Source: Candidatus Thorarchaeota archaeon
GTDB lineage: Archaea > Asgardarchaeota > Thorarchaeia > Thorarchaeales > Thorarchaeaceae
NCBI GenBank assembly: GCA_008080745.1
Contig: SHMX01000004.1
Coordinates: forward strand, 180,001 to 212,000
Reading direction: 5' to 3'
Length of the DNA: 32,000 nucleotides
The notes under the pieces: model-generated
What the model was told of the DNA's origin: nothing
Database searches by the model: none
Seen by the model: only the letters and a program-made list of their open reading frames with translations
Shown: positions 1 to 27,122 of the stretch, piece after piece
How positions within the stretch are numbered: position 1 is the first letter of the stretch
Layout: each line of letters begins with the position of its first letter
Translations under genes and position numbers: made by a program

Positions 1-634
1 CCATTGCTGAACATTCTGCGTGCCAACCAGGTCTTCCCTTACCCCAAGGACTCTCCCATGATGGTTCTCCAGGTTTTTCAGCTTTCCAAAGAACAAAATC
101 TCTTGGATCCTGTTTCTTTGAGTCTACTTCAACTCGTGCACCTGATGAAAGTTCATCAGGAGATATCTTCGATAATATCCCATAATCTTCGTACTCGCTG
201 ACATCAAAGTACACATCTCCCCCTACTTCATAACCGAGACCATTTTTGATTATCAGCTCGGTCATCTCAATCATGTCATCAATATGCTCAGTTGCTCGTG
301 GATTAATCGTTGCAGGTTTGAGATTGAGTTCATTTGCTATCGTTCGGTATTCAGATATGAACTTGGCAGCAAGCTCGGGAACTGAGATTCCCTCACGATT
401 GGCTCTATCAATCATCTTATCATCAACATCAGTGAAATTCGTGATGTAAGTAACGCGATAGCCTGAGTACTCCAAATAACGTCGTATCGTATCAAATACT
501 GCAAACGACCTTGCATTTCCAATATGAGGGTAATCGTACACTGTTGGACCACACACGTACATTCTTACATGATTTCCTTCCAGTGGCTCGAATTTCTCTT
601 TCGATCTCGACAGTGTGTTGTATACTTTGAGCAT
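1..634 (-). CDS. cysS: Cysteinyl-tRNA synthetase, N-terminal part (runs off the window start; missing from the ORF track)
   Basis: Manual translation from ATG at 634: [48 protein letters not shown]...NFTDVDDK...DFVLWK...[17 protein letters not shown]. It shows the class I HIGH-like motif (HIGN) and the CysRS CGPTVY, DVDDK and GRPGWH-ECSAM motifs. Confidence 0.96.
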
Positions 635-864: not shown

Positions 865-1830
865 GTGCTATCTCGTTCCTTTAACGAGTTTGGAAGAATA
901 TGGCATAAGTCAATGCAGCATCTATCTTGGTATGAAAATCCAAATCCAATTGACTACGATACGAATGAAGAACTAGAAGAATTAGCAGAGAGTTTCTCAC
1001 TTCCACATCACGTATTTCTAATTGCTAAATCCAACGGAGAAACAGTTGGATGTATCACTTTTGAAATACGTGAGAAATCGGCACGATTAGGAGTTACCAT
1101 GCCCGGCGTACCACCAAACGAGAATGCTTTCATGATTGGGAATAGGTTACTCAAAGAAAGCATTTCCATTCTAAAATCAAAATCTATTCCGGTTCTCCAT
1201 TGTACATTCAAATATAGAACTAAGGAGGAAATTCAGTGGCATCTCGATTTAGTTAAATCTCTGGGATTCGTACCTCAACCTGAGGGGACTCAGTTAATAC
1301 GACCTATTGATGAAAGCACAACTATAACTAATGATTCAATTGCTCAGTTTGAGATTCTTCATCGTGAAGACGTATCTCCTCAATCACTTGCTGAATTAAC
1401 CTATCATTCTTTTTTGGGAACTCCCGAAGATAGATCCATCCACAAAGACACCGTGCCCATGACTTTAGATGGCACTTTGGAATTACATAAGAGGATTGCA
1501 TCAAATTCGATGTTCTTTTCTCCTGCAAATTATTGGTACATTGCTAAAATAGGTGATGAGTTGGTAGGAGTGTTGATTGGTGGTGACTTGGGGAAAAGAA
1601 ATGGTTATCGAATCGGAATAATTGGTGAGCTTTGTGTTAGTCCATCTTTTCGTAGGTGTGGAATTGCCAGTAAATTAATTTCCAAGTTTATTTTGGATTT
1701 GAAAAAAGCGAATTTTGATTTTATCTTTGTTGGAACCCCCAGTAGAAACATTCATGCACTCAGACTATATGAGAAACATGGTTTTACTCCAACTAACTAT
1801 GTAACTCATTTCTCATTATCTCTGGAGTGA
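865..1830 (+). CDS. GNAT-family N-acetyltransferase, probably two GNAT domains
   Basis: 321 aa ORF. The C-terminal acetyl-CoA motif A reads LCVSPSFRRCGIASKL, followed by N..ALRLYEKHGF. The N-terminal half has a degenerate GNAT pattern (LIAKSNGETVGCI...LVKSLGF). Confidence 0.8.
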   Translation: MLSRSFNEFGRIWHKSMQHLSWYENPNPIDYDTNEELEELAESFSLPHHVFLIAKSNGETVGCITFEIREKSARLGVTMPGVPPNENAFMIGNRLLKESISILKSKSIPVLHCTFKYRTKEEIQWHLDLVKSLGFVPQPEGTQLIRPIDESTTITNDSIAQFEILHREDVSPQSLAELTYHSFLGTPEDRSIHKDTVPMTLDGTLELHKRIASNSMFFSPANYWYIAKIGDELVGVLIGGDLGKRNGYRIGIIGELCVSPSFRRCGIASKLISKFILDLKKANFDFIFVGTPSRNIHALRLYEKHGFTPTNYVTHFSLSLE

Positions 1831-1861: not shown

Positions 1862-2941
1862 TTACAGGAGTGAATCTGACTTTTCAATTCGAGGCCCTTC
1901 TACAATATCATCAATTCTTGGATGTATGATTCTTTTCCAAAGTGGCGGAATTAATGCTAACCATATCATTCCAGCATATCCGGTTGGTAGTTGAGGACTT
2001 TTTTCATAATGACGTAGAATTTGATATCTTCGTCCTGGTTTGTAGTGATGGTCTGCATGTCTTTGAAGGTTGAATAGGAACCAATTTGTAAAACGATGGC
2101 TTGAATTCCATGAGTGAGTGATTTTTACACGTTCGTATCCATTATCTGTTTCTTTCCTCTCAAGACCATAATGTTCAATGTAGTTAATCACTTCAAGTAA
2201 AGTGATTGCGACGAATGCTTGTAAAAGAAATAGTAATAACGAACTCAATCCAAGAATGAAAAAGACACCTATTATTAACGCGATTGTATAGAGAAGATGT
2301 CTAAGAGTTCTATTATGAGGGCTGTATGCTGATTTTTCTTGTCTGCTCAATCTATCTGCTTCAAACCGAAATACAGATCTTATAGCTCCAAATACGGTTT
2401 GAGGCCAGAATCTATAAAATGATTGGTTTCTTTTTGCTGTTGCAGGATCCTCTGGTGTTGCAACATGTCTGTGATGACCAACCACATGTTCGAGACCCCA
2501 ATGAAGATATCCCGTTGGCCAGAGAATTATTCGTGACATTGCCATCTCATATTTGCTTTTCACTCGATGCCCTAGCTCATGCCCCACATTTATTCCCATG
2601 ACCCCGCTATTGATTCCTATAGAAATTCCAAGACCAACAAAAGCGTGTGGAGGGAGGTTAACCACGGATACGATATACAATCCCCAGAAGACTAGTCCTA
2701 ATACAATTGGTACACACAGCCAAGTGATAATCCTATATGATTTGCTATTCTCCAATTCATCTTCTTCATTATCTGGAGGATTAGTTGTATCTTCACCTAT
2801 AGCAATATCCAAAATGGGTACAATTACAAAAACGAAAAACGGAGTAAGATAGTTCCACCAACCGCCCAGAAGATAGCCTGTGATAACCAGTACAGGTAAT
2901 GTAAATATGAGAGTATAAGGGAGAGCCCGCATAGATACCAT
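1862..2941 (-). CDS. alkB: Alkane 1-monooxygenase (AlkB/XylM-family membrane non-heme diiron hydroxylase)
   Basis: All histidine boxes are present in order: HELGH, EHVVGHH, NYIEHYG (the AlkB-diagnostic HYG motif) and LQRHADHH. It also has a PQLPTGYAGMIWLALIPPLW C-terminus and several hydrophobic segments. Confidence 0.93.
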   Translation of the reverse strand: MVSMRALPYTLIFTLPVLVITGYLLGGWWNYLTPFFVFVIVPILDIAIGEDTTNPPDNEEDELENSKSYRIITWLCVPIVLGLVFWGLYIVSVVNLPPHAFVGLGISIGINSGVMGINVGHELGHRVKSKYEMAMSRIILWPTGYLHWGLEHVVGHHRHVATPEDPATAKRNQSFYRFWPQTVFGAIRSVFRFEADRLSRQEKSAYSPHNRTLRHLLYTIALIIGVFFILGLSSLLLFLLQAFVAITLLEVINYIEHYGLERKETDNGYERVKITHSWNSSHRFTNWFLFNLQRHADHHYKPGRRYQILRHYEKSPQLPTGYAGMIWLALIPPLWKRIIHPRIDDIVEGPRIEKSDSLL

Positions 2942-2977
2942 TTTACATCGGGACAGTATAAGTTTGTCTTTTGGAAC

Positions 2978-3787
2978 GTGAAACCGATATCTGTAAATCC
3001 TCTAATGCATAAAGTACAGCTAATGAAATCCAGCATTGACGATATTCAAGAAAGAGTTCTTTCACTTCTAGCTATCGATGAGGATGAAGAGGCTGAGGGA
3101 ATACTTGATCCTGCTCTATCTAGTAATCCACAGAATCCACAATTACTCACTCTTGATGCAATTCTCATATTAAGAAGAGGGAGAGAAAAGGCAGCCGAGT
3201 CCAGACTTTGGAAGATAGTGGAAATGGATCCATCCAACGAGTTGGCAGTCTACACGCTTGGCAGTATTCTCAATAGTCAACTTAGAGTTGAAGCTGTGGA
3301 ACAGCTTTACAAAAACACATTGGAGAAACATCCTGACTCACATCAGGTTATGGACGACCTCTGTCGATTTCTCTACGAAGAGGATAGAGCTGAAGAAGCG
3401 TTCAAATTGGCTGGTGCACATAGAAAGAGATTTCCAAAAGTCTACGAGGCTTACGATGCAATTCGTTTTCTTCTTCACAGCGTCGAAGATTCACTAATGG
3501 GTGATGTTGAGGATACTGATGGAGATACTGGTTACCTGAACATGCTGCTCTCAAATCTTGTAGAACAGGCGGATCTGATATTAGAAATGGAAAAACAGGT
3601 TGGTCGTGAGAAGCTTGAGTCCTTGAATGTTGCTTGGGAAATTGATGAGGAACTTCTCAGAATAGCTGGTGAGCTTGAACATTATAAACAGGTAGCAAAA
3701 GTTGTGGGTCTCAATCTACCAACTTCCCTTGATTCTCATATTGATGAAATTATAAAGATAGGACGTTCACGAAGCAACCTTGATTGA
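2978..3787 (+). CDS. TPR-repeat protein (true start may be ATG 3005 or 3023)
   Basis: Helical repeats of TPR spacing (AESRLWKIVEMDPSNELAVYTLGSIL; VEQLYKNTLEKHPDSHQVMDDLCRFL; AFKLAGAHRKRFPKVYEAY). Confidence 0.65.
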   Translation: MKPISVNPLMHKVQLMKSSIDDIQERVLSLLAIDEDEEAEGILDPALSSNPQNPQLLTLDAILILRRGREKAAESRLWKIVEMDPSNELAVYTLGSILNSQLRVEAVEQLYKNTLEKHPDSHQVMDDLCRFLYEEDRAEEAFKLAGAHRKRFPKVYEAYDAIRFLLHSVEDSLMGDVEDTDGDTGYLNMLLSNLVEQADLILEMEKQVGREKLESLNVAWEIDEELLRIAGELEHYKQVAKVVGLNLPTSLDSHIDEIIKIGRSRSNLD

Positions 3788-3789
3788 AT

Positions 3790-4074
3790 CTATTGCCATT
3801 GGTATCCTTTATCCTCTTCCGGAGGTTGGTCAGATTTAGTGGTATATATGACGTGTTGTTCTCCTTCCTTCCAAAGCCAGATATGATAATCAGTACCTTC
3901 AAGGATTTCTAGCATTTTAGCTCGATCGGAATCCTGGAGACCCATTACTTTCAATAGGCTAAATGTATTCACTAGTCTATCAATGTTTTTTTCAATTGCA
4001 GCAGCAATTCTCTCCTTTGAGCCTTCCTCCATCTGTAGAATTTCCGAATCTCGAAGAACAGCCTTAATTCTCAT
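3790..4074 (-). CDS. Hypothetical protein, 94 aa
   Basis: ATG-started ORF that fills the gap between the TPR gene and the kinase and has a protein-like composition. No family recognised. Confidence 0.65.
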   Translation of the reverse strand: MRIKAVLRDSEILQMEEGSKERIAAAIEKNIDRLVNTFSLLKVMGLQDSDRAKMLEILEGTDYHIWLWKEGEQHVIYTTKSDQPPEEDKGYQWQ

Positions 4075-7294: not shown

Positions 7295-7831
7295 CTAGAT
7301 TGTTGTAAGCTCAATTATCCATTCTCGAATCTGGTCCCAATCACGAAAGTCCATCACATCAGGAACCTCTTCTCCTTCATTCATAGATTTCTTTACAATA
7401 CTCTTAACCATACGTCTTACAACAAAGTTGTATTTCTTAAAATCGAACATACCACCGAATAGACCTGTAGATACAGGTTTAATCTCAGGATATTGAGCTG
7501 CGATATTATCGAGGTACATAGTCTGTGCTTCATCACATTTTGCAGGATCACCTGCATCTCCACAGACTACAAATATTGCTACTTTCTTTGTTGCTAGCAA
7601 TGATGTATTCTCTTCAATAAACTTCAAGGGCTCCTTTGCCCATCGTCCCGCCTGAATTCCACTTCCAATCGCAATCAAGTCATAGTCTTCAATGGGATCT
7701 GGTAGGCTTCCTTCCTTTAGATCCACTGCATCAATGGAAACTCCTGCTTCCCGTGCAGTTTTTACCATCTCTTGTACAACTTCAGTAGTTGTTCCATACC
7801 GTGAACGATAACATATTCCGATTCGGTTCAT
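7295..7831 (-). CDS. Flavodoxin-domain protein (Flavodoxin_5 / HemG-like)
   Basis: FMN-binding loop YRSRYGTTTEV, then YDLIAIGSGIQAG, VAIFVVC, FGG and DFRDWDQIREW. The start is placed at the ATG of MNRIGICY, and the track start at 7885 is probably too long. Confidence 0.85.
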   Translation of the reverse strand: MNRIGICYRSRYGTTTEVVQEMVKTAREAGVSIDAVDLKEGSLPDPIEDYDLIAIGSGIQAGRWAKEPLKFIEENTSLLATKKVAIFVVCGDAGDPAKCDEAQTMYLDNIAAQYPEIKPVSTGLFGGMFDFKKYNFVVRRMVKSIVKKSMNEGEEVPDVMDFRDWDQIREWIIELTTI

Positions 7832-8344
7832 ATCTATCAACATGGATGTATATTCTTCCTCACAAAATGATTTCGGCATGTGCACAAGACTTCAATCAGA
7901 AATCTCAGATTGTTGAATTTATGATGCTCGAGCCGCTTTTCAGGTAAGATAATGAGTTGTCTTTGAAACAGCGTAGTCCTCTGGAATCGGGAATGTGTAC
8001 ACTTGCACTCTCATAGAATGCCCCCGCAATTATAGTGATGAGCGATTGTGTTGAATGATATCTTCGTGAGCTAACGTCATGCACCTTAGATTTGAATAGC
8101 GTTTCGGTTTTGAAAGCATATCAGTAGAGTTGACGAACTGATCTATGCTGCCTTGGTTTTCGAGACCTATCTGGAAGAACTCTAGGCAAATTTTGCAGAT
8201 TTCTTTATTACGATTTATCTCTCTCTCGGACTTGGTTATGAGTTAGGTTTCGATGGTCTTATAGAATTCTTCAGATACATGCAGAAACCGTTAAAAGTCA
8301 TCAGAAGAAGACTCTCTTGTTCACATCTTTGATGTGGAAATTCA

Positions 8345-8420
8345 GCCGGTCTGGCGGAGAAGCTGACGCAACAGACTGCAAATCTGTATCACTTGGGTGC
8401 AAATCCCAAGGCCGGCTCCA
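8345..8420 (+). tRNA. tRNA-Cys(GCA) with encoded CCA
   Basis: Acceptor GCCGGTC/GGCCGGC, D-stem GCG/CGC, anticodon arm ACAGA-CTGCAAA-TCTGT, T-arm TTGGG-TGCAAAT-CCCAA, discriminator U73 (the Cys identity element), then CCA. Length 76 nt, followed by a T-rich tract. Confidence 0.92.
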
Positions 8421-8501
8421 TTTCTATTTCATCTTCATTTTTGGTATATACTTTCGAAGTCTTATCATAACATTTAACGCGAACAAATAAACCATAGTAT
8501 A

Positions 8502-8540
8502 TTTATATATATTATATCATAATATATGATAAGATGAGGT
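8502..8540 (+). promoter_or_regulatory. Probable TATA box and SD-like site for the Rab-like GTPase gene
   Basis: TTTATATA at 8502-8509 lies in a very AT-rich stretch. GAGGT at 8536-8540 sits 8 nt before TTG 8549. Confidence 0.45.
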
Positions 8541-8548
8541 TGTGTTAG

Positions 8549-9142
8549 TTGAAAGAAGCGGCGTATATCTACAAGATATGTGTTATTGGAAATGGGGGTG
8601 TAGGTAAAACAAGTGCTGTAAAACGTTACTCTAAGGACGTATTCAGTGAAGACTATCAAGTCACAGTAGGTGTACAGCATTCTTCACAAACCATTAAGAT
8701 TGAGGGTGATGAGGGACCAACATTGGTAAAGACAATAGTGTGGGACCTGGGCGGGCAAGACAAATTCAAGTTCGTACGTCCAATGTTTTATCGTGCAGCT
8801 CGTGGGTTAGTCCTAATGTTCGATATTACCGATAAAAAGTCATTCGAAGATTTACCAAAATGGATTCAAGAAGCAGAGTCCAATATAGGACACTCTGTAC
8901 CAATCATATTAGTGGCGAATAAGGTTGACCTAGATAATCATGCCATTGAAATCCACGAAATCGAGCGTTATGCTGAATTTATTGGTGCAGAATACATTCT
9001 TGCATCAGTAAAGACTGGAGAGAATATCGATAACGTCTTTGTTAAGATCGGTGAAGCTCTTTATAATAATCGGGAACCAAGTACTAGAACTGGTTCCGAG
9101 AATGTTTCTTGTATTTCAACAGTGGGACGCGCTTCTATTTAG
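8549..9142 (+). CDS. Rab-like small GTPase (Ras superfamily)
   Basis: G1 GNGGVGKT, G2 TVGV, G3 WDLGGQDKF, RabF-like FYRAARG, G4 NKVD, G5 SVK. Confidence 0.92.
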   Translation: MKEAAYIYKICVIGNGGVGKTSAVKRYSKDVFSEDYQVTVGVQHSSQTIKIEGDEGPTLVKTIVWDLGGQDKFKFVRPMFYRAARGLVLMFDITDKKSFEDLPKWIQEAESNIGHSVPIILVANKVDLDNHAIEIHEIERYAEFIGAEYILASVKTGENIDNVFVKIGEALYNNREPSTRTGSENVSCISTVGRASI

Positions 9143-9170
9143 TTAATACACACAGTAGATTTTTAGTTGG

Positions 9171-11405
9171 TTGTTTCTGAGATTCAGATGTATTCCATTG
9201 AGTAATGAAATTGAGGACCTTGCGAAATCTGTTTTGCTTGATATAGGACATTCCATTCAAGATACTTTAGTAGAAAATAGACGTGTGAATAGAACTGTAT
9301 CTGAAGCGGTACGAATTGCCTCTTTGATTTACTCTCTTAGTATGTTTCAAAATAGAGACGCATTAGAGTTAGTGAAATCGAAAAGAATGCCGTTTTTATC
9401 CCTGTCATATCCTGCACAACAAAATGGCATATCTATTGACCAAGTGGTTTCGTTGGTTAGAGATCTATTAGACCAAGATATTAGAGTTTACAATACTATC
9501 TCGGAACTCACAACTCTTCAATATATTGAGCTTCTCCATCGGATTCATTCCTTAGGAGTATTCAATCCTATCATGCTTCGTAAGACAAAAACTCAACGAA
9601 AAACTGGGTCTGTCTATACTCCTTATTCCTTAGCAAAACACATTGTGAAATTAACAATCAATCCTCTTGTTAAAAAGTATTCCTCACCAAGTTCTATACC
9701 TGATTTTCTCTCAATTCGAATACTAGATCCTGCTTGTGGGCCTGGTATGTTCCTCGTTGCCTTGTACTTAGAATTCTGCACTCATATTAAGCATGTATTA
9801 TCGGAATCCCTTGCCACTCATGAAAAACTGGATTCTTCTCAATTAGTTGAGATTAAAGGAGGAATTGCAAGAAATCTATTTGGAGTTGATTTAGACAAGG
9901 CATCTTTGGAAATTGCAGATGTCGCTCTTAGTTTATTATCTGATGTAGATTTGATGGAAGAATCAGCATTTCTTGATAAGACTTTGAAACAGGGTAATTC
10001 TCTTATATCTATCAGTGGACTTGATGGCGGCCAGGATTACAGCAGTTTCTTTTCTGACCCATTAGCTCGATTACCTTTTGAATGGAGATCAGAATATACA
10101 ACCTGTTTTCAAAGAGGAGATTTCGGATTTGATTGTATTGTGATGAATCCCCCTTACAATAGACTAAAACCAAACCTCGCTGAATTTCTACGAGAAAAAT
10201 TGGTAATAGGTGAACGCGAGATACAGATGAGCTCTTTTGATGCATTCAAATCACAGCTTGCTGAGGATGTTGGTTACTTTCGAAATTCTGGAGAGTATCA
10301 ACTTGCTAACAAATACACTCTCGATACTTATCGTTTGTTCGTTGAGCGGGCTATTCAACTCTTAAGACCCTCAGGATATATGGGCTTCATAGTTCCATCA
10401 ACCCTTCTAGGAGATCTTTCTGCTAAGATGCTTCGAAAATACATCTTCTCTCATACCGATGTTGATACAATTGAGATATACGTAGAACAAGCTGGATTAT
10501 TCGAGCAAGTTACTCAATCCGTTTGTATTCTCACCACTCAACTTGGTAGTCCAAGTCAGAATATTACTCTAAAATTTGATGGAACTGAACTGGGTAAATT
10601 TTCTTCTCAAAAATTCATAAAACTATCCACAGAAGAGATTCGACAGGTTTCAGGCTCTTCAATGGTCGTTCCTCAGGTTACGCGGGATGGTTTAGGAATC
10701 CTAAAAAAGATACATAGACATCCCTCCTTGGGTCAACTTAGATGGGTGGAAATTTTTAGAGGTGAACTCGATCTTACAAATAATTCTTCATTCATTCAAG
10801 ATCATCAAAATGATACTCCTCTCATTCGTGGAGCTAACATCGATCGTTTTAGAATCGATTTAGATTCTATTGAACACTCAGTTAATTTCGAATTTTTTTC
10901 CGAATGGTTGAAGGGTTCTCGTAGACATCCCCATCTTCAACAACAAAGGATAGCCTGTCAACAAATATCAAATAGGGCTCAGAGATGGAGATTAAAATTT
11001 GCGAAGATTTCACCCAATTCCATCTTAGCTAATTCATGCAATTATATTGCAGTATCAAATTATAATCCGTCTGACTATCTTGATTACTTGCTAGGGTTAC
11101 TCAACTCCAGTCTTCTAAACTGGAGATTCGCCTTATCAAATACCAATAATCATGTGTCAAATAGAGAATTGGCTGCTCTTCCTGTTGTAAATCCCGTTAC
11201 TGCTACTGCAAATGGAACAAAGCTAATTCAACAAATAATTGACTGGGTACGAGAGCATACCTCAAATAGAATCGATACAGTTCCTCTTGATATCTTAGTA
11301 TTCCGTTTGTTCGGACTTGATCCAAATGAAGCCAAAGTAATATTGACTCGACAAAATGCAGGAAAGAGTGAGATGTCTGAGATTATTAGTAGCTTAATTT
11401 TGTAG
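9171..11405 (+). CDS. N6-adenine DNA methyltransferase, gamma class, resembling the Alw26I/Eco31I/Esp3I (M1.BsaI-like) family
   Basis: GSVYTP, ILDPACGPGMFL and IVMNPPY in gamma order, plus a TaqI-like C-terminal region (PLIRGANIDRF). The segment FIVPSTLLGD...LRKYIF...AGLFEQVTQ resembles this family as I recall it. Confidence 0.85.
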   Translation: MFLRFRCIPLSNEIEDLAKSVLLDIGHSIQDTLVENRRVNRTVSEAVRIASLIYSLSMFQNRDALELVKSKRMPFLSLSYPAQQNGISIDQVVSLVRDLLDQDIRVYNTISELTTLQYIELLHRIHSLGVFNPIMLRKTKTQRKTGSVYTPYSLAKHIVKLTINPLVKKYSSPSSIPDFLSIRILDPACGPGMFLVALYLEFCTHIKHVLSESLATHEKLDSSQLVEIKGGIARNLFGVDLDKASLEIADVALSLLSDVDLMEESAFLDKTLKQGNSLISISGLDGGQDYSSFFSDPLARLPFEWRSEYTTCFQRGDFGFDCIVMNPPYNRLKPNLAEFLREKLVIGEREIQMSSFDAFKSQLAEDVGYFRNSGEYQLANKYTLDTYRLFVERAIQLLRPSGYMGFIVPSTLLGDLSAKMLRKYIFSHTDVDTIEIYVEQAGLFEQVTQSVCILTTQLGSPSQNITLKFDGTELGKFSSQKFIKLSTEEIRQVSGSSMVVPQVTRDGLGILKKIHRHPSLGQLRWVEIFRGELDLTNNSSFIQDHQNDTPLIRGANIDRFRIDLDSIEHSVNFEFFSEWLKGSRRHPHLQQQRIACQQISNRAQRWRLKFAKISPNSILANSCNYIAVSNYNPSDYLDYLLGLLNSSLLNWRFALSNTNNHVSNRELAALPVVNPVTATANGTKLIQQIIDWVREHTSNRIDTVPLDILVFRLFGLDPNEAKVILTRQNAGKSEMSEIISSLIL

Positions 11406-11450
11406 TTTATTTCTTGTACATTAGAGTAATCTTTTCATAGTCTAAATCAG

Positions 11451-12692
11451 ATGTGTTTTCTGAATGGTATGGTCCTTGTTCAAGCAGAGATGGTGAGTTC
11501 ACAGAAGGAGAAGAATTCACTATTTAATCATGTGAGTGCAACACTCAGTCAGTTAGATATGGAGATGATACAATCTGTTCCACAGGGGGGAAACTGGCAA
11601 GATATACCCTCTCACATAGTGGAAAAATCCGCCCGATTGATGCAAATTCGAGAATCTGGTGGAAGAACCACATACTACGGCCGTTTGCATCCTGATTACC
11701 CGAGTTATACAATTAGTACCTACTTCAATAGACCAGGGAATGGTACCTTTATTCATCCCGATCAAGATCGACTCATATCTTTACGCGAAGGAGCGAGACT
11801 ACAATCCTTCCCTGATGATTATCGCTTTTTAGGAAGCCAAACTTCGATGTACAAACAGATCGGGAACGCAGTACCTCCACTATTAGCAAGGTCTATTGCT
11901 GAGAGTATACCTGTTGGTCTTGCCGTAGACCTTTTTGCTGGTGCGGGTGGTCTCTCTCTTGGTTTGGTCCAATCAGGACATAGACCTATTGTTGCTGCAG
12001 ATAATAATCGTAACATGTGCCTTACTTATTCATATAATCACCCTGATACAATGACATCTCTCTCTAATCTCCAAAATACAGAAGATTTTGAAAATTTATG
12101 CAACTTGATTGATAATACCCTTCATGGAAGAACATTACAGCTAGTTGCAGGAGGTCCACCTTGTCAGGGTTTCTCTACCGCTGGAAAATGGGATAGCAGA
12201 GACTCAAGAAATTCACTAGTGGTACCAATGCTGAAGGTGATTCAAAGATTCCAACCAGAATTTGTTTTGATTGAAAATGTTCTTGGACTCAAGTGGATGG
12301 AAAAGGGAGCAATCCTTCAGAGAATAATCTCTATCCTTGATTCAATGGAATATTCTACTCAATGGTACACATTCAAGGCAGAAGCATATGGTGTACCACA
12401 GAGACGAAGAAGAATTTTCATCATAGGGTCCCGATCTGGTGACTACGACGCGCCCACTCCTTTTTTTGCTTCGGTAAAACGAACCAGAAATCGTGACATC
12501 ATCCAATATTCATCGAATCAACTTCCATTACCAATCTCTGTTCGAGAAGCGATATTCGACCTGCCTGAGATAGAATCAGGGAATATCTCACATATACAAT
12601 CATATAATGGTGAAAGCGTTTTATCAAATTACCAGAAATACATGCGTGATGAGATATCTTACGAAGAATTTCTCAAATCAGTACAATCCTGA
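11451..12692 (+). CDS. Circularly permuted C5-cytosine DNA methyltransferase (M2.BsaI/M2.Eco31I-like)
   Basis: Motifs IX (LREGARLQSFPDDY) and X (YKQIGNAVPP) come before motif I (DLFAGAGG), IV (GGPPCQGFS), VI (ENV) and VIII (GVPQRRRRIF). Confidence 0.93.
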   Translation: MCFLNGMVLVQAEMVSSQKEKNSLFNHVSATLSQLDMEMIQSVPQGGNWQDIPSHIVEKSARLMQIRESGGRTTYYGRLHPDYPSYTISTYFNRPGNGTFIHPDQDRLISLREGARLQSFPDDYRFLGSQTSMYKQIGNAVPPLLARSIAESIPVGLAVDLFAGAGGLSLGLVQSGHRPIVAADNNRNMCLTYSYNHPDTMTSLSNLQNTEDFENLCNLIDNTLHGRTLQLVAGGPPCQGFSTAGKWDSRDSRNSLVVPMLKVIQRFQPEFVLIENVLGLKWMEKGAILQRIISILDSMEYSTQWYTFKAEAYGVPQRRRRIFIIGSRSGDYDAPTPFFASVKRTRNRDIIQYSSNQLPLPISVREAIFDLPEIESGNISHIQSYNGESVLSNYQKYMRDEISYEEFLKSVQS

Positions 12693-12763
12693 TTTGCGGA
12701 GGATTTTTCCATAGAAGTATTTTATAGTTTCATTCCCTTTATCTATCAGATGGAGTAATTGCA

Positions 12764-14449
12764 TTGATAGTTCATGCGGCTTTAATCGACCTACTAAGTG
12801 GCAAAGTAATGTCACAGTTGGATTTCACAAAGGGAAACCTAAGATCGGCACAGGTTGATATGGCTGTAGATAGTTATTTTGCATTCTTACAGGCAGGACT
12901 TGAAGATACATGTAGTACAGCTGAAATTGGGAGCAATGCTGTTTTACTCTGCAAAGTGAATGATATCACTCTCTTGGCTTGTTTTAGTGATGATAAAAAA
13001 ATAGATGACGACCAACTAGAATCTGCGAAAATACTCAGTTCTCAAGTCAAAGAACGAATTGGTGAAAAATCTGCAAGAAAGGTTAGAGGTATATTTCCTT
13101 CTTTAGCACGTGAGCAGTTTCAGAAAGCGGTATCAATTTTCTTCGTATCACACCATTATCCTGAGATTGATAATAAATCTGGACAAGCGGTACAGAAACT
13201 ACTGAATAGCAAACACTCATCCAATGAATCCTATTCTGTAAATGTGGGTCCATTTTCAATTTCATACAAACACGGTATTCCATCGGAGATTACGGGGTAT
13301 GATTCTAAATCACTGGAAGATATCGATGTTCTTGTATTTATTATATCTAATCCAATTTGGCCTGAATCAATATTTGACAGCGTTATCAGGAGATTTCGTG
13401 AGCATCCTGATATTCCGATACTTGTGGTTCCGGGATCTGATGATTATCTAGAAATTACCCGAAAATATGAAGAAAAATACGAAGTCATATTGTGCGATTC
13501 TGTTTCAGATGACCCGCATCGACTACTTGTATCGGTATTAGCATACAGTGGACTATCATTTGAACAACCAGAAATAGCAATGCAGAAATGGAGAATGGAC
13601 TCTATCGAAGCTTCTTCTGATGAACATTTACGGGAGAAAGAGGAGTTACTAGGACATCAAGCATTTTTTGTAATCGACAAACAAACAGGAAGACCAGTTT
13701 ACACTTATTTTTATGACCAACAATCTGTACTGCTTGATAGAATTCCCAATGTTGTGGCAGCTATTTCAGCTTTATCAATGGATCCTGATAGTAGCACGAA
13801 AACATCCGTTGTGCGAACTGGAAACTTGAATTATGCAATTATTGAGCGGAATGATTTGATATTTACATTGATTACTGGTCTAAAAGAAGATGCAGATGCT
13901 ATACGTTCTCAGTTCGCATTCCTACCTGATCTCTATTTTGACGAAGCACCTGATGATGTTATCAAACATGAGAATCCATATTCTGCTCCTCCCTTCACCT
14001 TGAAACTTCTAGCTACACTGCCTCCTGAACCCTTACCTGGGCGACTTATTCCGCAGCATAAGAATGAACCAGAATGGGAGAAATTCAAAGAGGAATCAGT
14101 CAGAGACTTCATTCAAGCCATTTGGCATACAATTGATGGAGATCGACCTATTTCCAGAATGGCTGTGGGTGATGGACCTCTCTTAGTGATAGGTGCTCTT
14201 CATCTCCTTAAATCACTAGGTGCTATAAACATGAAAATTGACGTGAGGTTGGAAGACATACCTGTATTGCAGACTACAGATCCTTCACATGTCAAATTAC
14301 CTTACACTGGGATCGAGTCGGTTCTGGATTATGTCAATGGAGATAATACATTGGGTGATATTTGCAATCACACGAATATAGAAATAGAGGTACTGAGAAC
14401 AGTCTTTGGGATGCTCTATAATCGTGGAGTTATTGATTTTCTGGAGTAG
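12764..14449 (+). CDS. Longin-like / degenerate GTPase-fold / longin-like / tandem winged-helix protein
   Basis: Segment-by-segment similarity to the next gene. Second longin-like region FFVIDKQTGRPVYTYFY...NVVAAISAL...IIERNDLIFTLIT. Two C-terminal repeats IDGDRPI and VNGDNTL...LYNRGVIDF. Confidence 0.75.
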   Translation: MIVHAALIDLLSGKVMSQLDFTKGNLRSAQVDMAVDSYFAFLQAGLEDTCSTAEIGSNAVLLCKVNDITLLACFSDDKKIDDDQLESAKILSSQVKERIGEKSARKVRGIFPSLAREQFQKAVSIFFVSHHYPEIDNKSGQAVQKLLNSKHSSNESYSVNVGPFSISYKHGIPSEITGYDSKSLEDIDVLVFIISNPIWPESIFDSVIRRFREHPDIPILVVPGSDDYLEITRKYEEKYEVILCDSVSDDPHRLLVSVLAYSGLSFEQPEIAMQKWRMDSIEASSDEHLREKEELLGHQAFFVIDKQTGRPVYTYFYDQQSVLLDRIPNVVAAISALSMDPDSSTKTSVVRTGNLNYAIIERNDLIFTLITGLKEDADAIRSQFAFLPDLYFDEAPDDVIKHENPYSAPPFTLKLLATLPPEPLPGRLIPQHKNEPEWEKFKEESVRDFIQAIWHTIDGDRPISRMAVGDGPLLVIGALHLLKSLGAINMKIDVRLEDIPVLQTTDPSHVKLPYTGIESVLDYVNGDNTLGDICNHTNIEIEVLRTVFGMLYNRGVIDFLE

Positions 14450-23363: not shown

Positions 23364-26300
23364 CTAGTTAATAGAGTGTATCTTTATGAGTTCACCAATA
23401 CGTGCCATTCTTACAGGTTTCTGGACCCAAGTTACCAGTCCGATAGCTTGTAACTCATCTTTCTTCGAACCTAGAGGATATCCTGTCATCAATATCATTC
23501 TAACCGATGGATTGATTGATGCCATCTTCTTTGCTAGCTCAATACCATCCATGTCTGGCATCATCATATCAGTCATTATGATATCGATGTTGTCTTTTTC
23601 CTTGTGGTATATTTCCAGTGCCATGATTCCGTTGGAAGCTGTATAGATTTGACAACCTAGACGCTCTAACATTCTTGATATTGCTTCAAGGACGATCTCA
23701 TCATCATCGACAAGAAGCACTGATATACCTGAACAGTCAGTATCAGGTTTGGTTTCTTTTTCCTGTTCAACAGGCACCTCATGATGCATTGGAAGGTGAA
23801 TTACAAAAGTAGTACCACTATCCAACTCAGTCTCTACAGATATGGTACCATTATGAATATCGATAATACCATATACCTGGGCAAGTCCTAGTCCTGAACC
23901 TTGAGCTCTATCTTTAGTCGTGAAAAATGGTTCAAAGATATGTGGTACTATTGAATCTTCAATTCCGGGCCCGTTGTCTATCACCTCCAATCGTATCCAC
24001 TCTTCAGAAGATGATTCTGTATCATCAGGATTATTTCGACTTGTGCTCAATTTGATTTTTATAATACCCCCATCGGGCATAACATCTCTCGAATTGATTG
24101 CTAAATTCATTAGAACTTGGTGCAGTTGTGTTGGGTCGGCCATGACTGTATAATTACCAACTTCGTATTCTGTAAGCAATCGGATATTACTTGGAATAGT
24201 TGTTTTTAACAAACTGAGTATCTCATCGATTACTTTGCGTAGATCAACAATCTTCTTTTCTGATATTGACTGTTTACTGAAATCAAGAATCTGATGAGTT
24301 AATTCTGCTCCCTTGTTAGCAAGTGATTGTATCGATTTGAGATCTTTCATAACATCGTCAGGTATTATTTTTTTCAATTGAAGCAATTCTGTAAATCCAA
24401 TGATGCCCTGAAGAATATTGGAAAAATCATGTGCCATTCCAGCTGCCAATTGACCTACTGAAGCAAGACGTTCTTGTGTGCTGACTCGTTCTTGAATCTC
24501 TCGCATTATAGTGACATCTTCAATAACAAGTACCCATCCTCCTTTTTGGGGTCCGGTTTGGATTGGTATTGTCATTACTTCAAAAATCCTAGGTGGATCT
24601 TGAATTTGTATCTCTACAGCACGATTTTCTTGATAATTGTTTAGAATATCATCCAGTGCTTTGTTTCCAATACCCAATAACGAATTATCCGAATCAATTA
24701 TTCCTACCATATCCAAATACGTCTCGGCTATTTTATTTTGAAATAATATTCTTTCATCGGGATTTATTAGTAAAACTCCTTCTGGTAAATGTTCTATTAG
24801 ACTGGCAAGCCTTTCTTTTTCAGCTGATCTCAAGACAGATATTTTTTGTAACACTAAGGATACTTGGTTCATACTTGTAAATAGGAGTCGAATGTCATCT
24901 TCAGTAAACTGATTATCTTTTTCAGAACCTAGGAGAACTAGTCCAATTACTTCTCTGGTATCGGGAAATACTATCGGGTTTTTTATCGTAGATTGTATTT
25001 CTACTAATTGATGTCCCTTTTCCTCAATTGGCGATTCGGTTCTAACATGAACTATGGGATCTTCAGGAAGTTCCGAGGTACTTTCAGCTCGAAGTTTTAG
25101 ATATCCTTCCCTAAGCATCTGTTTGATTTGTAACTCGGTTTTTGATGATATTGGTCTTATAGGATTAATCATGAAATACTGCTGCTCTTCAATAATGAAA
25201 AGGGATGCAGAAACATCGTGATTGAATGAACGATTCAAATGTCTATGTAAGATGGGCATAACCTCTTCATAGCTTACAGTTTGTCCAACTTCTTGTGATA
25301 GACTGTATAGCATTTGCATTTCAGATGATTTTCGTTCCAAACTCCTGTTAGTTTCCTCCAGAGTTTCCAGTGTTCTTATTCTTTGCAGAGCTATTGCAGC
25401 TAGGTTGGCAAAAGCTGATACATATTCCAAATCATCATTGGAAAAACCCTCTGATTTGTTTGATAGAGCAATCAATCCTTGAGTTCTTTCCTCCAATACA
25501 ATGGGGACGCAGAGAATGTTTTCCAATTCAACAAGGTGTTCCGGTAGAGTCTGATAGAATTCTGGATGAGTCAAATCATTTTCATACAGTGGTTCTCTGC
25601 TTCTATACACTTTTTCACTCAAGCCCTTTATTGATAGGTAAGTATCGATATTTCGGATGAAAATTGAATCTTCAGAAGACATTAGATCTATTTCGTGTTG
25701 TTTTTCCTCATCAGTTATTATCATGATGTTGCCAGTGGTTGCTCCTGTAATGGATTTGCAAGCTTCGATTATGACCGTTGTAATGTCAGCAAAATCAGAA
25801 TACTCTAGTATACTATTGGCGGTGTCGTATAATTTATCGGACAACAATTTCTTCTGGATTATTTCATCTTCTGCTGCTTTACGTTTGGTGATGTCTCTGG
25901 CTATTCCTTCTAGGGCAATCAAATTTCCGTCATTATCATATATCGGTGTATTATTCTGCTCTATCCAGATAATTTCTCCATTTTTATGAACCCATCTCAT
26001 AATTATTGGTTCGGATGAAACCTCATGCATCATTTCTTGGAGCTTATCTTTGTCCTCTGGGTGTATAATTTGAGAGCCCAATGATGGATTGTCATAGTGA
26101 TCCTGTGGACTATAACCAATCATTTCAGTTGCTGAAGGGCTAATATATTCAAATTTTAATTCTGGAATCATGCGAATTCGATAAATAAGATCCTGTGCAT
26201 TCTCTGCAATTAGCTTCAAATGACTCTCTGAAGTTTCTAGAGCATCTCTTCCTCGTTCGATTTCTAGTCTTGCATGTAAGATTGGTGCTATCATATCAGC

Positions 26301-27122
26301 AAATTTCTTCATAAGATGAACATCATATTCCGAATAGTTACTTGGCTTATTTGCTACCGTAATTTGCCCAATCACTTTCTTATGAAATATTATAGGTACC
26401 GCAACTGATCTTGTGATATGGATGTGTCCTTCCGGCACTGTGTTCTCTACATTCTTTACAACTACTCTCTTCTCAACTAGGGATTCTTTCCAGATTCCAC
26501 CCCAACTTTCAGGTTGAAAAATAATATCTTTGTCGGGAACCTGACACTTATCCCATATATCCCGAGTCATAGACGGACACACTAGCGCTCCATTCTCATC
26601 TATATATCCAAAATAGCCAAATTTACTTCTTGTTGACTTAAGAACGATATCCAATACCTCTGCAAAAACCTCATCGTCTTTTTCGGATAGAAATACCTCA
26701 AGAATCTCATTTCTCATCTTTATCTCAAAGAAGGACCTCTCAGGTTCAGTCACATCTGTTTCTCTATCTAATTCAGGAATACAAACAAGTCTGAACATTT
26801 CCGGGTTTTCTTTCAATTTCAGTCCAATTATCAGATAGGATTTTGATCTTCCATTTGCATGTAATATTGATGCAGATACGCCGATTGCTTCCTCATCGAT
26901 TCTCTCCAAAAAATCTTCTATTTGATCTTTCTCTGAGAGAGGAAGCATCCTTTCAGAGAACTTCTCACCTAGTACATCCCGAAGTTCATATCCTAATTTA
27001 GAGATACCACTTTCATTGATATTAATGATTGAACCATTTCTATCTAGAACTAACTCAATATCTTCATACCTCTTTTCGGTACTCTCTCTCAAAATTTTCA
27101 CCCTTGGAGATTCCTCTGACAT
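23364..27122 (-). CDS. Cytoplasmic hybrid sensor histidine kinase (PAS-GAF-PAS-GAF-GAF-PAS-HisKA-HATPase-REC)
   Basis: H-box AAGMAHDFSNIL, NLAINSRD, DNGPGI, FEPFFTTK, GSGLGL, and receiver LLVDDD...TDMMMPDMDG...MTG...KP. PAS/PAC (YDNDGNLIALEGIARDIT) and GAF (VPII...VIGQITVANK) repeats lie upstream. No TM segment seen. Confidence 0.93.
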   Translation of the reverse strand: MSEESPRVKILRESTEKRYEDIELVLDRNGSIININESGISKLGYELRDVLGEKFSERMLPLSEKDQIEDFLERIDEEAIGVSASILHANGRSKSYLIIGLKLKENPEMFRLVCIPELDRETDVTEPERSFFEIKMRNEILEVFLSEKDDEVFAEVLDIVLKSTRSKFGYFGYIDENGALVCPSMTRDIWDKCQVPDKDIIFQPESWGGIWKESLVEKRVVVKNVENTVPEGHIHITRSVAVPIIFHKKVIGQITVANKPSNYSEYDVHLMKKFADMIAPILHARLEIERGRDALETSESHLKLIAENAQDLIYRIRMIPELKFEYISPSATEMIGYSPQDHYDNPSLGSQIIHPEDKDKLQEMMHEVSSEPIIMRWVHKNGEIIWIEQNNTPIYDNDGNLIALEGIARDITKRKAAEDEIIQKKLLSDKLYDTANSILEYSDFADITTVIIEACKSITGATTGNIMIITDEEKQHEIDLMSSEDSIFIRNIDTYLSIKGLSEKVYRSREPLYENDLTHPEFYQTLPEHLVELENILCVPIVLEERTQGLIALSNKSEGFSNDDLEYVSAFANLAAIALQRIRTLETLEETNRSLERKSSEMQMLYSLSQEVGQTVSYEEVMPILHRHLNRSFNHDVSASLFIIEEQQYFMINPIRPISSKTELQIKQMLREGYLKLRAESTSELPEDPIVHVRTESPIEEKGHQLVEIQSTIKNPIVFPDTREVIGLVLLGSEKDNQFTEDDIRLLFTSMNQVSLVLQKISVLRSAEKERLASLIEHLPEGVLLINPDERILFQNKIAETYLDMVGIIDSDNSLLGIGNKALDDILNNYQENRAVEIQIQDPPRIFEVMTIPIQTGPQKGGWVLVIEDVTIMREIQERVSTQERLASVGQLAAGMAHDFSNILQGIIGFTELLQLKKIIPDDVMKDLKSIQSLANKGAELTHQILDFSKQSISEKKIVDLRKVIDEILSLLKTTIPSNIRLLTEYEVGNYTVMADPTQLHQVLMNLAINSRDVMPDGGIIKIKLSTSRNNPDDTESSSEEWIRLEVIDNGPGIEDSIVPHIFEPFFTTKDRAQGSGLGLAQVYGIIDIHNGTISVETELDSGTTFVIHLPMHHEVPVEQEKETKPDTDCSGISVLLVDDDEIVLEAISRMLERLGCQIYTASNGIMALEIYHKEKDNIDIIMTDMMMPDMDGIELAKKMASINPSVRMILMTGYPLGSKKDELQAIGLVTWVQKPVRMARIGELIKIHSIN

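Follow-up and report, generated by a model that had tools for sequence, protein, structure and literature searches.

An intact AlkB-family hydroxylase gene in a Thorarchaeota genome without terminal oxidases

Introduction

The DNA analysed here, referred to as the window, is a stretch of 32,000 nucleotides from the genome of a Candidatus Thorarchaeota archaeon (GenBank assembly GCA_008080745.1, contig SHMX01000004.1; C4:180001-212000 in the numbering used below). Near its left end lies alkB, a gene for a membrane diiron hydroxylase of the AlkB family, with the genes of CysRS and of a GNAT acetyltransferase on one side and those of a TPR protein and a 94-codon product on the other. Asgard archaea of the Thor and Loki types are regarded as strict anaerobes, and the way in which Asgard archaea handle oxygen bears on scenarios for the origin of eukaryotes. 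An O2-dependent hydroxylase that is under selection in hosts without O2 respiration, and that forms an Asgard clade of its own, suggests that these hosts meet and exploit traces of oxygen. The gene also offers a concrete, expressible enzyme with which this idea can be tested.

The alkB gene and its product

The reading frame of alkB comprises 359 codons and runs uninterrupted over exactly 1862..2941 of the minus strand. Its product is matched by the FA_desaturase superfamily model of Pfam (PF00487, 1.8e-34), of which it is the sole member in the host genome, and by no NCBIfam model. When solved structures were searched with phmmer, only two matches were obtained, both of them AlkB entries of Fontimonas thermophila, namely chain 8f6t_A (6e-82) and 8sbb_A (2e-72), with residues 23-347 aligned. 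The identity to 8F6T is 41%.

An AlphaFold2 model, for which 55 homologues served as input, reached a mean predicted local distance difference test (pLDDT) score of 94.6. It superposes on 8F6T with a TM-score of 0.90 and a root-mean-square deviation (rmsd) of 1.8 Å, and on 8SBB with a TM-score of 0.88. The AlkB fold, with six transmembrane helices and a cytosolic cap, is distinct from that of desaturases of the SCD1 type; on stearoyl-CoA desaturase SCD1 itself (4ZYO, 6WF2), the model scores just 0.32. A membrane fatty-acid desaturase proper (SCD/FADS) was rejected as an identity, given that nothing narrower than the superfamily model matches, that the fold comparison is poor and that the NYIEHYG motif is present. 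Membership in the AlkB family is, therefore, as firm as sequence and fold allow. The preliminary description of this window had announced an intact AlkB with all its histidine boxes and the NYxEHYG motif; the reading frame, the motifs, the nine histidines and the fold bear it out in every particular, and the product groups with AlkB and not with the desaturases.

In comparison with the copy of a congeneric species, the ratio of nonsynonymous to synonymous substitutions (dN/dS) of alkB is 0.03-0.05, with dS saturated. Such a ratio over saturated dS argues for selective maintenance and rules out neutral decay; the gene has evidently been kept by selection since the two species of the genus split.

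Active site and substrate channel

Residue equivalences were derived from HMMER alignments to 8f6t_A and 8sbb_A, along with the residue numbers published with the structures (PMC10110569, PMC10113152). Conservation was counted in an alignment of 147 relatives, 24 from the Asgard clade described below and 123 others. All nine iron-ligand histidines (H121, H125, H152, H156, H157, H257, H295, H298 and H299) are invariant, in 24/24 sequences of the Asgard clade as well as in 123/123 of the others. H121 and H125 of the HELGH motif are equivalent to His137 and His141 of FtAlkBG (PMC10113152), and E256 and H257 of NYIEHYG to E281 and H282 of FtAlkB (PMC10110569). The glutamate beside the ninth histidine is a conserved residue (E281 in FtAlkB, E271 in FtAlkBG), and it is kept in 24/24 Asgard-clade sequences and 120/123 others.

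The substrate channel is similarly preserved. In FtAlkB, the alkyl terminus is positioned by L274, L315 and L318 (PMC10110569). The corresponding leucines of the archaeal protein, L249, L289 and L292, are kept in all 24 sequences of the Asgard clade, with L289 and L292 matching L315 and L318. The position known to gate chain length is occupied by V37, and within the clade it holds V in 20 sequences, I in 3 and G in 1; its counterpart is W55 in GPo1 AlkB, W62 in FtAlkB and I54 in FtAlkBG. In characterised enzymes, small residues at this place are associated with substrates from C12 upwards (PMC10110569, PMC10113152).

The Asgard clade differs from its bacterial neighbours at just five positions, of which none is catalytic. 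Since the residues of the active site and the channel are conserved and the signature positions lie away from the catalytic ones, there is no sign of altered chemistry in the AlkB of the Asgard clade. A neofunctionalisation of the clade is likewise not supported, as none of the five positions falls at the active site. The enzyme looks like a wholly orthodox member of a known family.

Table 1. Features at the alkB locus, with positions counted from the first letter of the window
Feature	Position	Strand	Basis or remark
alkB, 359-aa AlkB-family membrane diiron hydroxylase	1862..2941	-	open reading frame, Pfam, structure match, AlphaFold2 model, dN/dS
His box 1, HELGH (residues 121-125; H121, H125)	2567..2581	-	invariant in 147/147 aligned relatives
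His box 2, EHVVGHH (residues 151-157; H152, H156, H157)	2471..2491	-	histidines invariant, 147/147
NYIEHYG (residues 253-259), with ninth His ligand H257 and active-site Glu E256	2165..2185	-	H257 invariant
LQRHADHH (residues 292-299), with His box 3 (H295, H298, H299) and channel residue L292	2045..2068	-	histidines invariant
V37, chain-length-gating position	2831..2833	-	hand mapping from HMMER alignments
CysRS gene, 5' part; left anchor of the insertion	2..634	-	Pfam tRNA-synt_1e, 6.6e-82
GNAT acetyltransferase gene, convergent with alkB	865..1830	+	Pfam Acetyltransf_1, 1e-19
Divergent spacer alkB/TPR, 36 bp	2942..2977	.	one TATA-like element at about 2955-2962, read from sequence
TPR protein gene, right anchor	2978-3787	+	conserved pair with the 94-codon gene
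Conserved 94-codon gene, right anchor	3790-4074	-	paired with the TPR gene

Host genome and authenticity of the locus

The bin to which the window belongs amounts to 3.16 Mb in 19 contigs and is 98% complete, with an estimated contamination of 4.8%. The contig that carries alkB measures 416 kb and has a guanine-plus-cytosine (GC) fraction of 0.40 in a genome of 0.41, and alkB resembles its neighbouring genes both in GC and in GC at third codon positions (GC3). Five short contigs of the bin (C14, C15, C17, C18 and C19; 2.4-14.6 kb) have a GC of 0.62-0.65 and are almost certainly contaminants.

The window encodes small GTPases of the Ras/Arf type. The closest relative of its NadA is the congener's protein (83% identity), followed by dozens of proteins named after Candidatus Thorarchaeota at 64-73%. 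The CysRS is 70-83% identical across 38 other genomes of the family and 96% in the congener. In this congener (G001, WJMJ01000079.1), which was assembled independently, alkB is syntenic and its product is 86% identical. The submitter label of WJMJ01000079.1, Promethearchaeota/Lokiarchaeota, is probably wrong in view of the CysRS identity and the synteny with the present genome, whose NadA has its nearest wider relatives among proteins named Thorarchaeota. Thus, with a 416-kb contig, flanks conserved in the family, a syntenic congener and matching GC, mis-binning and chimerism, named in the preliminary description as what would undo its proposal, are excluded as far as sequence comparison permits.

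Insertion between conserved neighbours

In seven other genera of the family (g2, g3, g6, g7, g8, g9 and g12), the TPR gene and the 94-codon gene come immediately after CysRS. In the host genus, the gap between CysRS and TPR is filled by the GNAT gene and alkB. Because the anchors adjoin elsewhere and these two genes intervene here, alkB was inserted between CysRS and TPR in the ancestor of the genus. The gene order of the congener is identical (GNAT, alkB, TPR, 94-codon gene and a histidine kinase), with 3 kb more between CysRS and TPR that include an ABC-2 permease gene.

The locus had earlier been described as free of mobile-element signs, between ordinary genes. This stands in so far as the direct and inverted repeats flanking alkB are at chance level, none of them meaningful, and no integrase or adjacent tRNA marks the insertion, the sole tRNA (tRNA-Cys, 8345-8420) being 5.4 kb away. 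It does not stand as a picture of an undisturbed locus, for the comparative synteny shows that alkB was inserted. The GNAT gene was considered as a passenger from the donor of alkB, and this found no support: outside the genus, it is absent beside alkB, and the GNAT-like genes of other genera are just 25-34% identical and lie elsewhere, in g6 past the 94-codon gene.

The spacer between alkB and the TPR gene suggests either that the two genes share a bidirectional promoter and have leaderless transcripts, or that their true starts lie further in. Candidate internal starts are M4 of alkB and the ATG at 3006 or 3023 of the TPR gene.

The neighbours of alkB (GNAT, TPR, the 94-codon gene and the histidine kinase) do not form a cluster of the alk type. 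At other Asgard loci, the Pfam families next to alkB are of unrelated function and include 2-hydroxyacyl-CoA dehydratase, PHP, RNA polymerase A'', L30e, photolyase and acetoacetate decarboxylase. In one Loki genus, alkB follows two 2-hydroxyacyl-CoA dehydratase genes. In another Loki-type genome (G200, L065:7228-10513), it sits between the genes of RNA polymerase A'' (Rpb1 domain 5) and of a ribosomal protein of the L7Ae/L30e family; its place inside a conserved cluster of transcription and translation genes is further proof of archaeal residence. Taken together, the loci show alkB as a gene that travels singly.

Distribution and phylogeny

The gene is present in both species of the host genus and in 0/84 other genomes of the same GTDB family, where the host genus is one of 16 genera. 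Across the phylum, 11 of 400 Asgard genomes have a match, and these belong to the families f1 (the host genus), f9 (Loki-type, 5/135), f29 (2/14), f30 (1/4) and f14 (1/12). The f14 copy is divergent, with an identity of 36-40%. It lies on a contig of 2.6 kb (L013, G103:C418:1338-2342), of which the membership in the bin is uncertain.

A protein collection yielded thousands of relatives, the nearest of which are 50-58% identical and about 345-365 aa long; they come from Asgard metagenome-assembled genomes (MAGs), Desulfobacterota, SAR324 and MAGs of unclassified 'Proteobacteria'. Trees were built with FastTree from 147 sequences and with IQ-TREE from 65 sequences (LG+C20 PMSF). In both of them, all Asgard copies except the divergent one of f14, which falls outside, form a single clade, with a support of 95 (FastTree) and 99/98 (IQ-TREE). 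The clade has 22 rows in the IQ-TREE set and 24 in the 147-sequence set, which contains two further, near-identical sequences of it. Known Asgard sequences make up 13 of the 22 rows and unlabelled metagenome proteins the other 9; none of the 22 carries a bacterial label. The clade spans four GTDB families.

When the tree is rooted on more distant AlkBs, the Asgard clade is nested among bacterial AlkBs of about 350 aa (Desulfobacterota, SAR324), which indicates that the original transfer went from bacteria to Asgard archaea. The window copy is sister to the pair from family f29 (97/80). This sisterhood, together with an insertion at the level of the genus, points to a transfer between Asgard archaea, and the source of the gene in the host genus was most probably another Asgard archaeon. 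Of the two origins that had been proposed for separation by phylogeny, a recent bacterial transfer and an archaeal clade, it is the latter that the trees recover.

Oxygen and electron supply

Neither a haem-copper oxidase (COX1) nor cytochrome bd was found in the 98% complete host genome, in line with the anaerobic Asgard host that had been suspected from the window. The same holds in a wider circle: no terminal oxidase of the haem-copper or cytochrome bd kind was found in any of 10 searched genomes with an AlkB of the Asgard clade, and the only COX1-bearing genome among the eleven with alkB is the one with the divergent f14 copy.

The electron partners of an AlkB, by comparison, are encoded in the genome. 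According to the preliminary description, neither a rubredoxin nor a reductase gene is in the window, and indeed the lone rubredoxin of the host lies on contig C8 and all Pyr_redox_2 matches of C4 fall outside C4:180001-212000. The rubredoxin (C8:32291-32431) is single and stand-alone, scores 97 bits against the NCBIfam RubredRD cut-off of 90, and lies on a contig that has, like C4, a GC of 0.40. A flavoprotein of the rubredoxin-reductase type (C4:132312-133496, 395 aa) carries the domains Pyr_redox_2 and Rubredoxin_C. It shares its contig with alkB, at a distance of 49.5 kb. Both partners expected of an AlkB-family system are present as genes, unlinked to alkB. No unusual electron donor is needed, as the genome encodes both of them, and the non-standard donor once suggested for this enzyme becomes unnecessary.

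Rubredoxin is resident in 23/23 good genomes of the family and the reductase in 31/40. A joint acquisition of these genes with alkB was rejected on this ground, and in the simplest reading an incoming alkB could plug into the existing rubredoxin chain. Of the ten genomes with an Asgard-clade AlkB, nine have a rubredoxin and nine a reductase domain; among the Asgard genomes checked, a rubredoxin was never found on the contig of alkB.

In anaerobes, the chain of NADH:rubredoxin oxidoreductase and rubredoxin normally feeds superoxide reductase and rubrerythrin. The host also encodes rubrerythrin and superoxide reductase, and as possible downstream enzymes five acyl-CoA dehydrogenases and two aldehyde dehydrogenases. 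In three Loki-type genomes (G325:C65:3878-4406, G322:C77:10955-11482 and G200:C22:15563-16115), a Rubredoxin_C reductase domain shares a frame of about 450 aa with one or two rubredoxin domains; these look like natural fusions.

Comparison with known systems

The closest characterised relatives are the alkane 1-monooxygenases of Fontimonas thermophila, FtAlkB and FtAlkBG (8SBB and 8F6T). The identity is 40-41% over the whole core, the model superposes with TM-scores of 0.88-0.90 and an rmsd of 1.8-2.2 Å, and the nine histidines, the glutamate and the channel leucines are the same. The archaeal gene differs in having no fused or adjacent rubredoxin and in belonging to a host without O2 respiration. 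It differs, too, in V37, in place of Trp62 (FtAlkB) or Ile54 (FtAlkBG), and in the docking arginines, of which 2/6 are kept.

With AlkB, AlkG and AlkT of Pseudomonas putida GPo1, the archaeal system shares the family and the predicted three-component scheme, in which a reductase and a rubredoxin serve the membrane hydroxylase; the genome has a gene of each kind. In contrast to the alk operon of GPo1, the genes are unlinked, the reductase gene lying 49.5 kb from alkB and the rubredoxin gene on another contig, and there are no neighbours of the alkH, alkJ, alkK or alkS type. The range of C5-C12 goes with W55 in GPo1 AlkB, where the archaeal protein has V37 (PMC10110569).

The uncharacterised AlkBs of about 350 aa from Desulfobacterota, SAR324 and related sediment and deep-sea bacteria are annotated in databases as 'alkane 1-monooxygenase', and they are 50-56% identical and equal in length and motifs. 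They form the immediate phylogenetic surroundings, from which the Asgard copies are set apart as their own clade (99/98) and by the five signature positions. The Loki-type AlkBs belong to the same Asgard clade (55-59% identity), and their hosts likewise lack terminal oxidases. They differ in the class of the host and in an independent insertion site, which is CysRS/TPR here and the dehydratase genes or the rpoA''-L30e cluster in Loki-type genomes.

A further likeness is to the anaerobe chain of Pyrococcus furiosus and Clostridium acetobutylicum, which is known to feed the detoxification of O2 and reactive oxygen species (ROS). Its flavoprotein, rubredoxin, superoxide reductase and rubrerythrin all have counterparts in the host; the difference is the acceptor, which in the archaeal host would include AlkB.

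Databases already name such proteins alkane 1-monooxygenase in MAGs labelled Lokiarchaeota or Promethearchaeota. Full-text literature searching found no paper that reports or discusses an alkane-type AlkB in Asgard archaea; the one mention of 'alkB' met in that searching concerned the DNA-repair dioxygenase, and monooxygenases go unmentioned in a preprint on the oxygen metabolism of Asgard archaea. The present analysis adds a Thor-type case, a mapped insertion site, a supported Asgard clade, a consistent lack of oxidases and a resident electron chain. As the enzyme is orthodox and such proteins are already named in databases, the advance is incremental.

Possible role of the archaeal AlkB

It is moderately probable that the enzyme uses O2 opportunistically to activate long alkyl chains, with electrons drawn from the reductase-rubredoxin chain already resident in the host. 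The enzyme would work as an AlkB-type membrane diiron monooxygenase, which takes O2 and two electrons, the latter arriving one at a time via rubredoxin. A long alkyl chain would enter sideways from the membrane and be hydroxylated at its end, as in characterised AlkBs. The electrons would pass from NAD(P)H to the flavoprotein on C4, then to the rubredoxin on C8 and finally to AlkB. The Asgard-specific clade descends from the AlkBs of sediment bacteria named above, and the ancestor of the genus gained its copy between CysRS and TPR, the donor most probably being another Asgard archaeon. Trace O2 reaching the cell would be used for activating long-chain alkanes or similar hydrophobic chains, and the products could feed the aldehyde dehydrogenases and the beta-oxidation enzymes encoded by the host. 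The use is termed opportunistic, upon traces of O2, because the host has no terminal oxidase.

Several observations weigh against this proposal. By hand mapping, just two of the six rubredoxin-docking arginines of FtAlkBG are positionally conserved (R200 and R271), with other basic residues nearby; the interface in FtAlkBG has been described as non-specific electrostatics (PMC10113152). A host without O2 respiration makes the energy gain from complete alkane oxidation unclear. In every Asgard locus, alkB is unlinked to genes of rubredoxin, reductase and alcohol or aldehyde dehydrogenase, and across 13 Asgard loci no neighbour is conserved between families, the sharing being limited to one Loki genus. 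The rubredoxin chain is also found in family members that lack alkB and thus makes no specific argument for a partnership. Finally, the archaeal origin of the nine unlabelled rows of the clade follows solely from their sisterhood to labelled sequences.

The absence of catabolic neighbours could also be read as a sign of oxygen defence. In this alternative, AlkB would stand at the end of the anaerobe-type reductase-rubredoxin chain and mainly consume O2 in the membrane, thereby protecting O2-labile enzymes, with membrane hydrocarbon as a sacrificial co-substrate or through uncoupled turnover. It is favoured by the lack of terminal oxidases in 10/10 genomes with an Asgard-clade AlkB, by the presence in the same genome of rubrerythrin and superoxide reductase, the classic rubredoxin-fed defences, and by the Loki alkB beside genes of the O2-labile 2-hydroxyacyl-CoA dehydratase. 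That adjacency, however, is confined to a single genus, and alkB is rare (1/16 genera of the family, about 2.5% of the Asgard genomes searched), whereas dedicated defences are near-universal. Furthermore, the strict conservation of the channel leucines argues that substrate hydroxylation itself is under selection. A defensive role is held to be unlikely.

Still less likely is a modification of endogenous lipids, in which the terminal hydroxylation of isoprenoid or fatty-acyl chains, or of a quinone tail, would tune the membrane. AlkB falls within the lipid-modifying FADS-like superfamily (PMC10110569; PF00487 match), stands alone without alk pathway genes, and has a small gating residue that permits long chains. 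Its co-inserted neighbour is a gene of the acyl-transferase type (GNAT), but this gene lies beside alkB in the host genus alone. In its active site and channel, the enzyme cannot be told apart from alkane-oxidising AlkBs, and its patchy occurrence is not what a core lipid trait would show. We know of no hydroxylated lipid in Thorarchaeota.

An artefact or relic, be it a bacterial contaminant of the bin or a recent functionless passenger, has in its favour the foreign contigs (GC 0.62-0.65 vs 0.41), the 4.8% contamination and the overwhelmingly bacterial nature of the family, and it is highly improbable given the 416-kb host-like contig with archaeal flanks conserved in the family, the syntenic congener from another assembly, the Asgard genome in which alkB is flanked by the genes of RNA polymerase A'' and L30e/L7Ae, and the low dN/dS.

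The Asgard clade occurs in four families and is under strong purifying selection. It is conceivable, though speculative and on balance doubtful, that it signals the use of O2 as a co-substrate outside respiration by archaea that lack a terminal oxidase, with the stress chain wired to a hydroxylase so that hydrocarbon or lipid activation and O2 removal would be one reaction. If true, this would be an undescribed physiological coupling, and it would place Loki- and Thor-type archaea routinely at oxic-anoxic interfaces. In any case, the presence of the gene in these archaea calls for caution when alkB is taken to indicate aerobic alkane degraders in sediment metagenomes.

Other features of the window

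A Flavodoxin_5 protein (7295-7885, minus strand) is weakly HemG-like, resembling the menaquinone-dependent protoporphyrinogen dehydrogenase at 64.8 bits against a cut-off of 142. In the region 8345-14449, the tRNA-Cys gene comes first, and after it lie a gene for a GTPase of the Ras family, a restriction-modification fusion resembling Eco57I/MmeI (9171-11405), a C5 cytosine methylase (11451-12692) and an open reading frame of 561 aa without a Pfam match. Three other genera have homologues of the Eco57I-like protein, at 35-39% identity, in the vicinity of CysRS and the 94-codon gene. Further to the right, the minus strand encodes a hybrid sensor kinase of 1252 aa (23364-27122) with PAS, two GAF, HisKA, HATPase and receiver domains.

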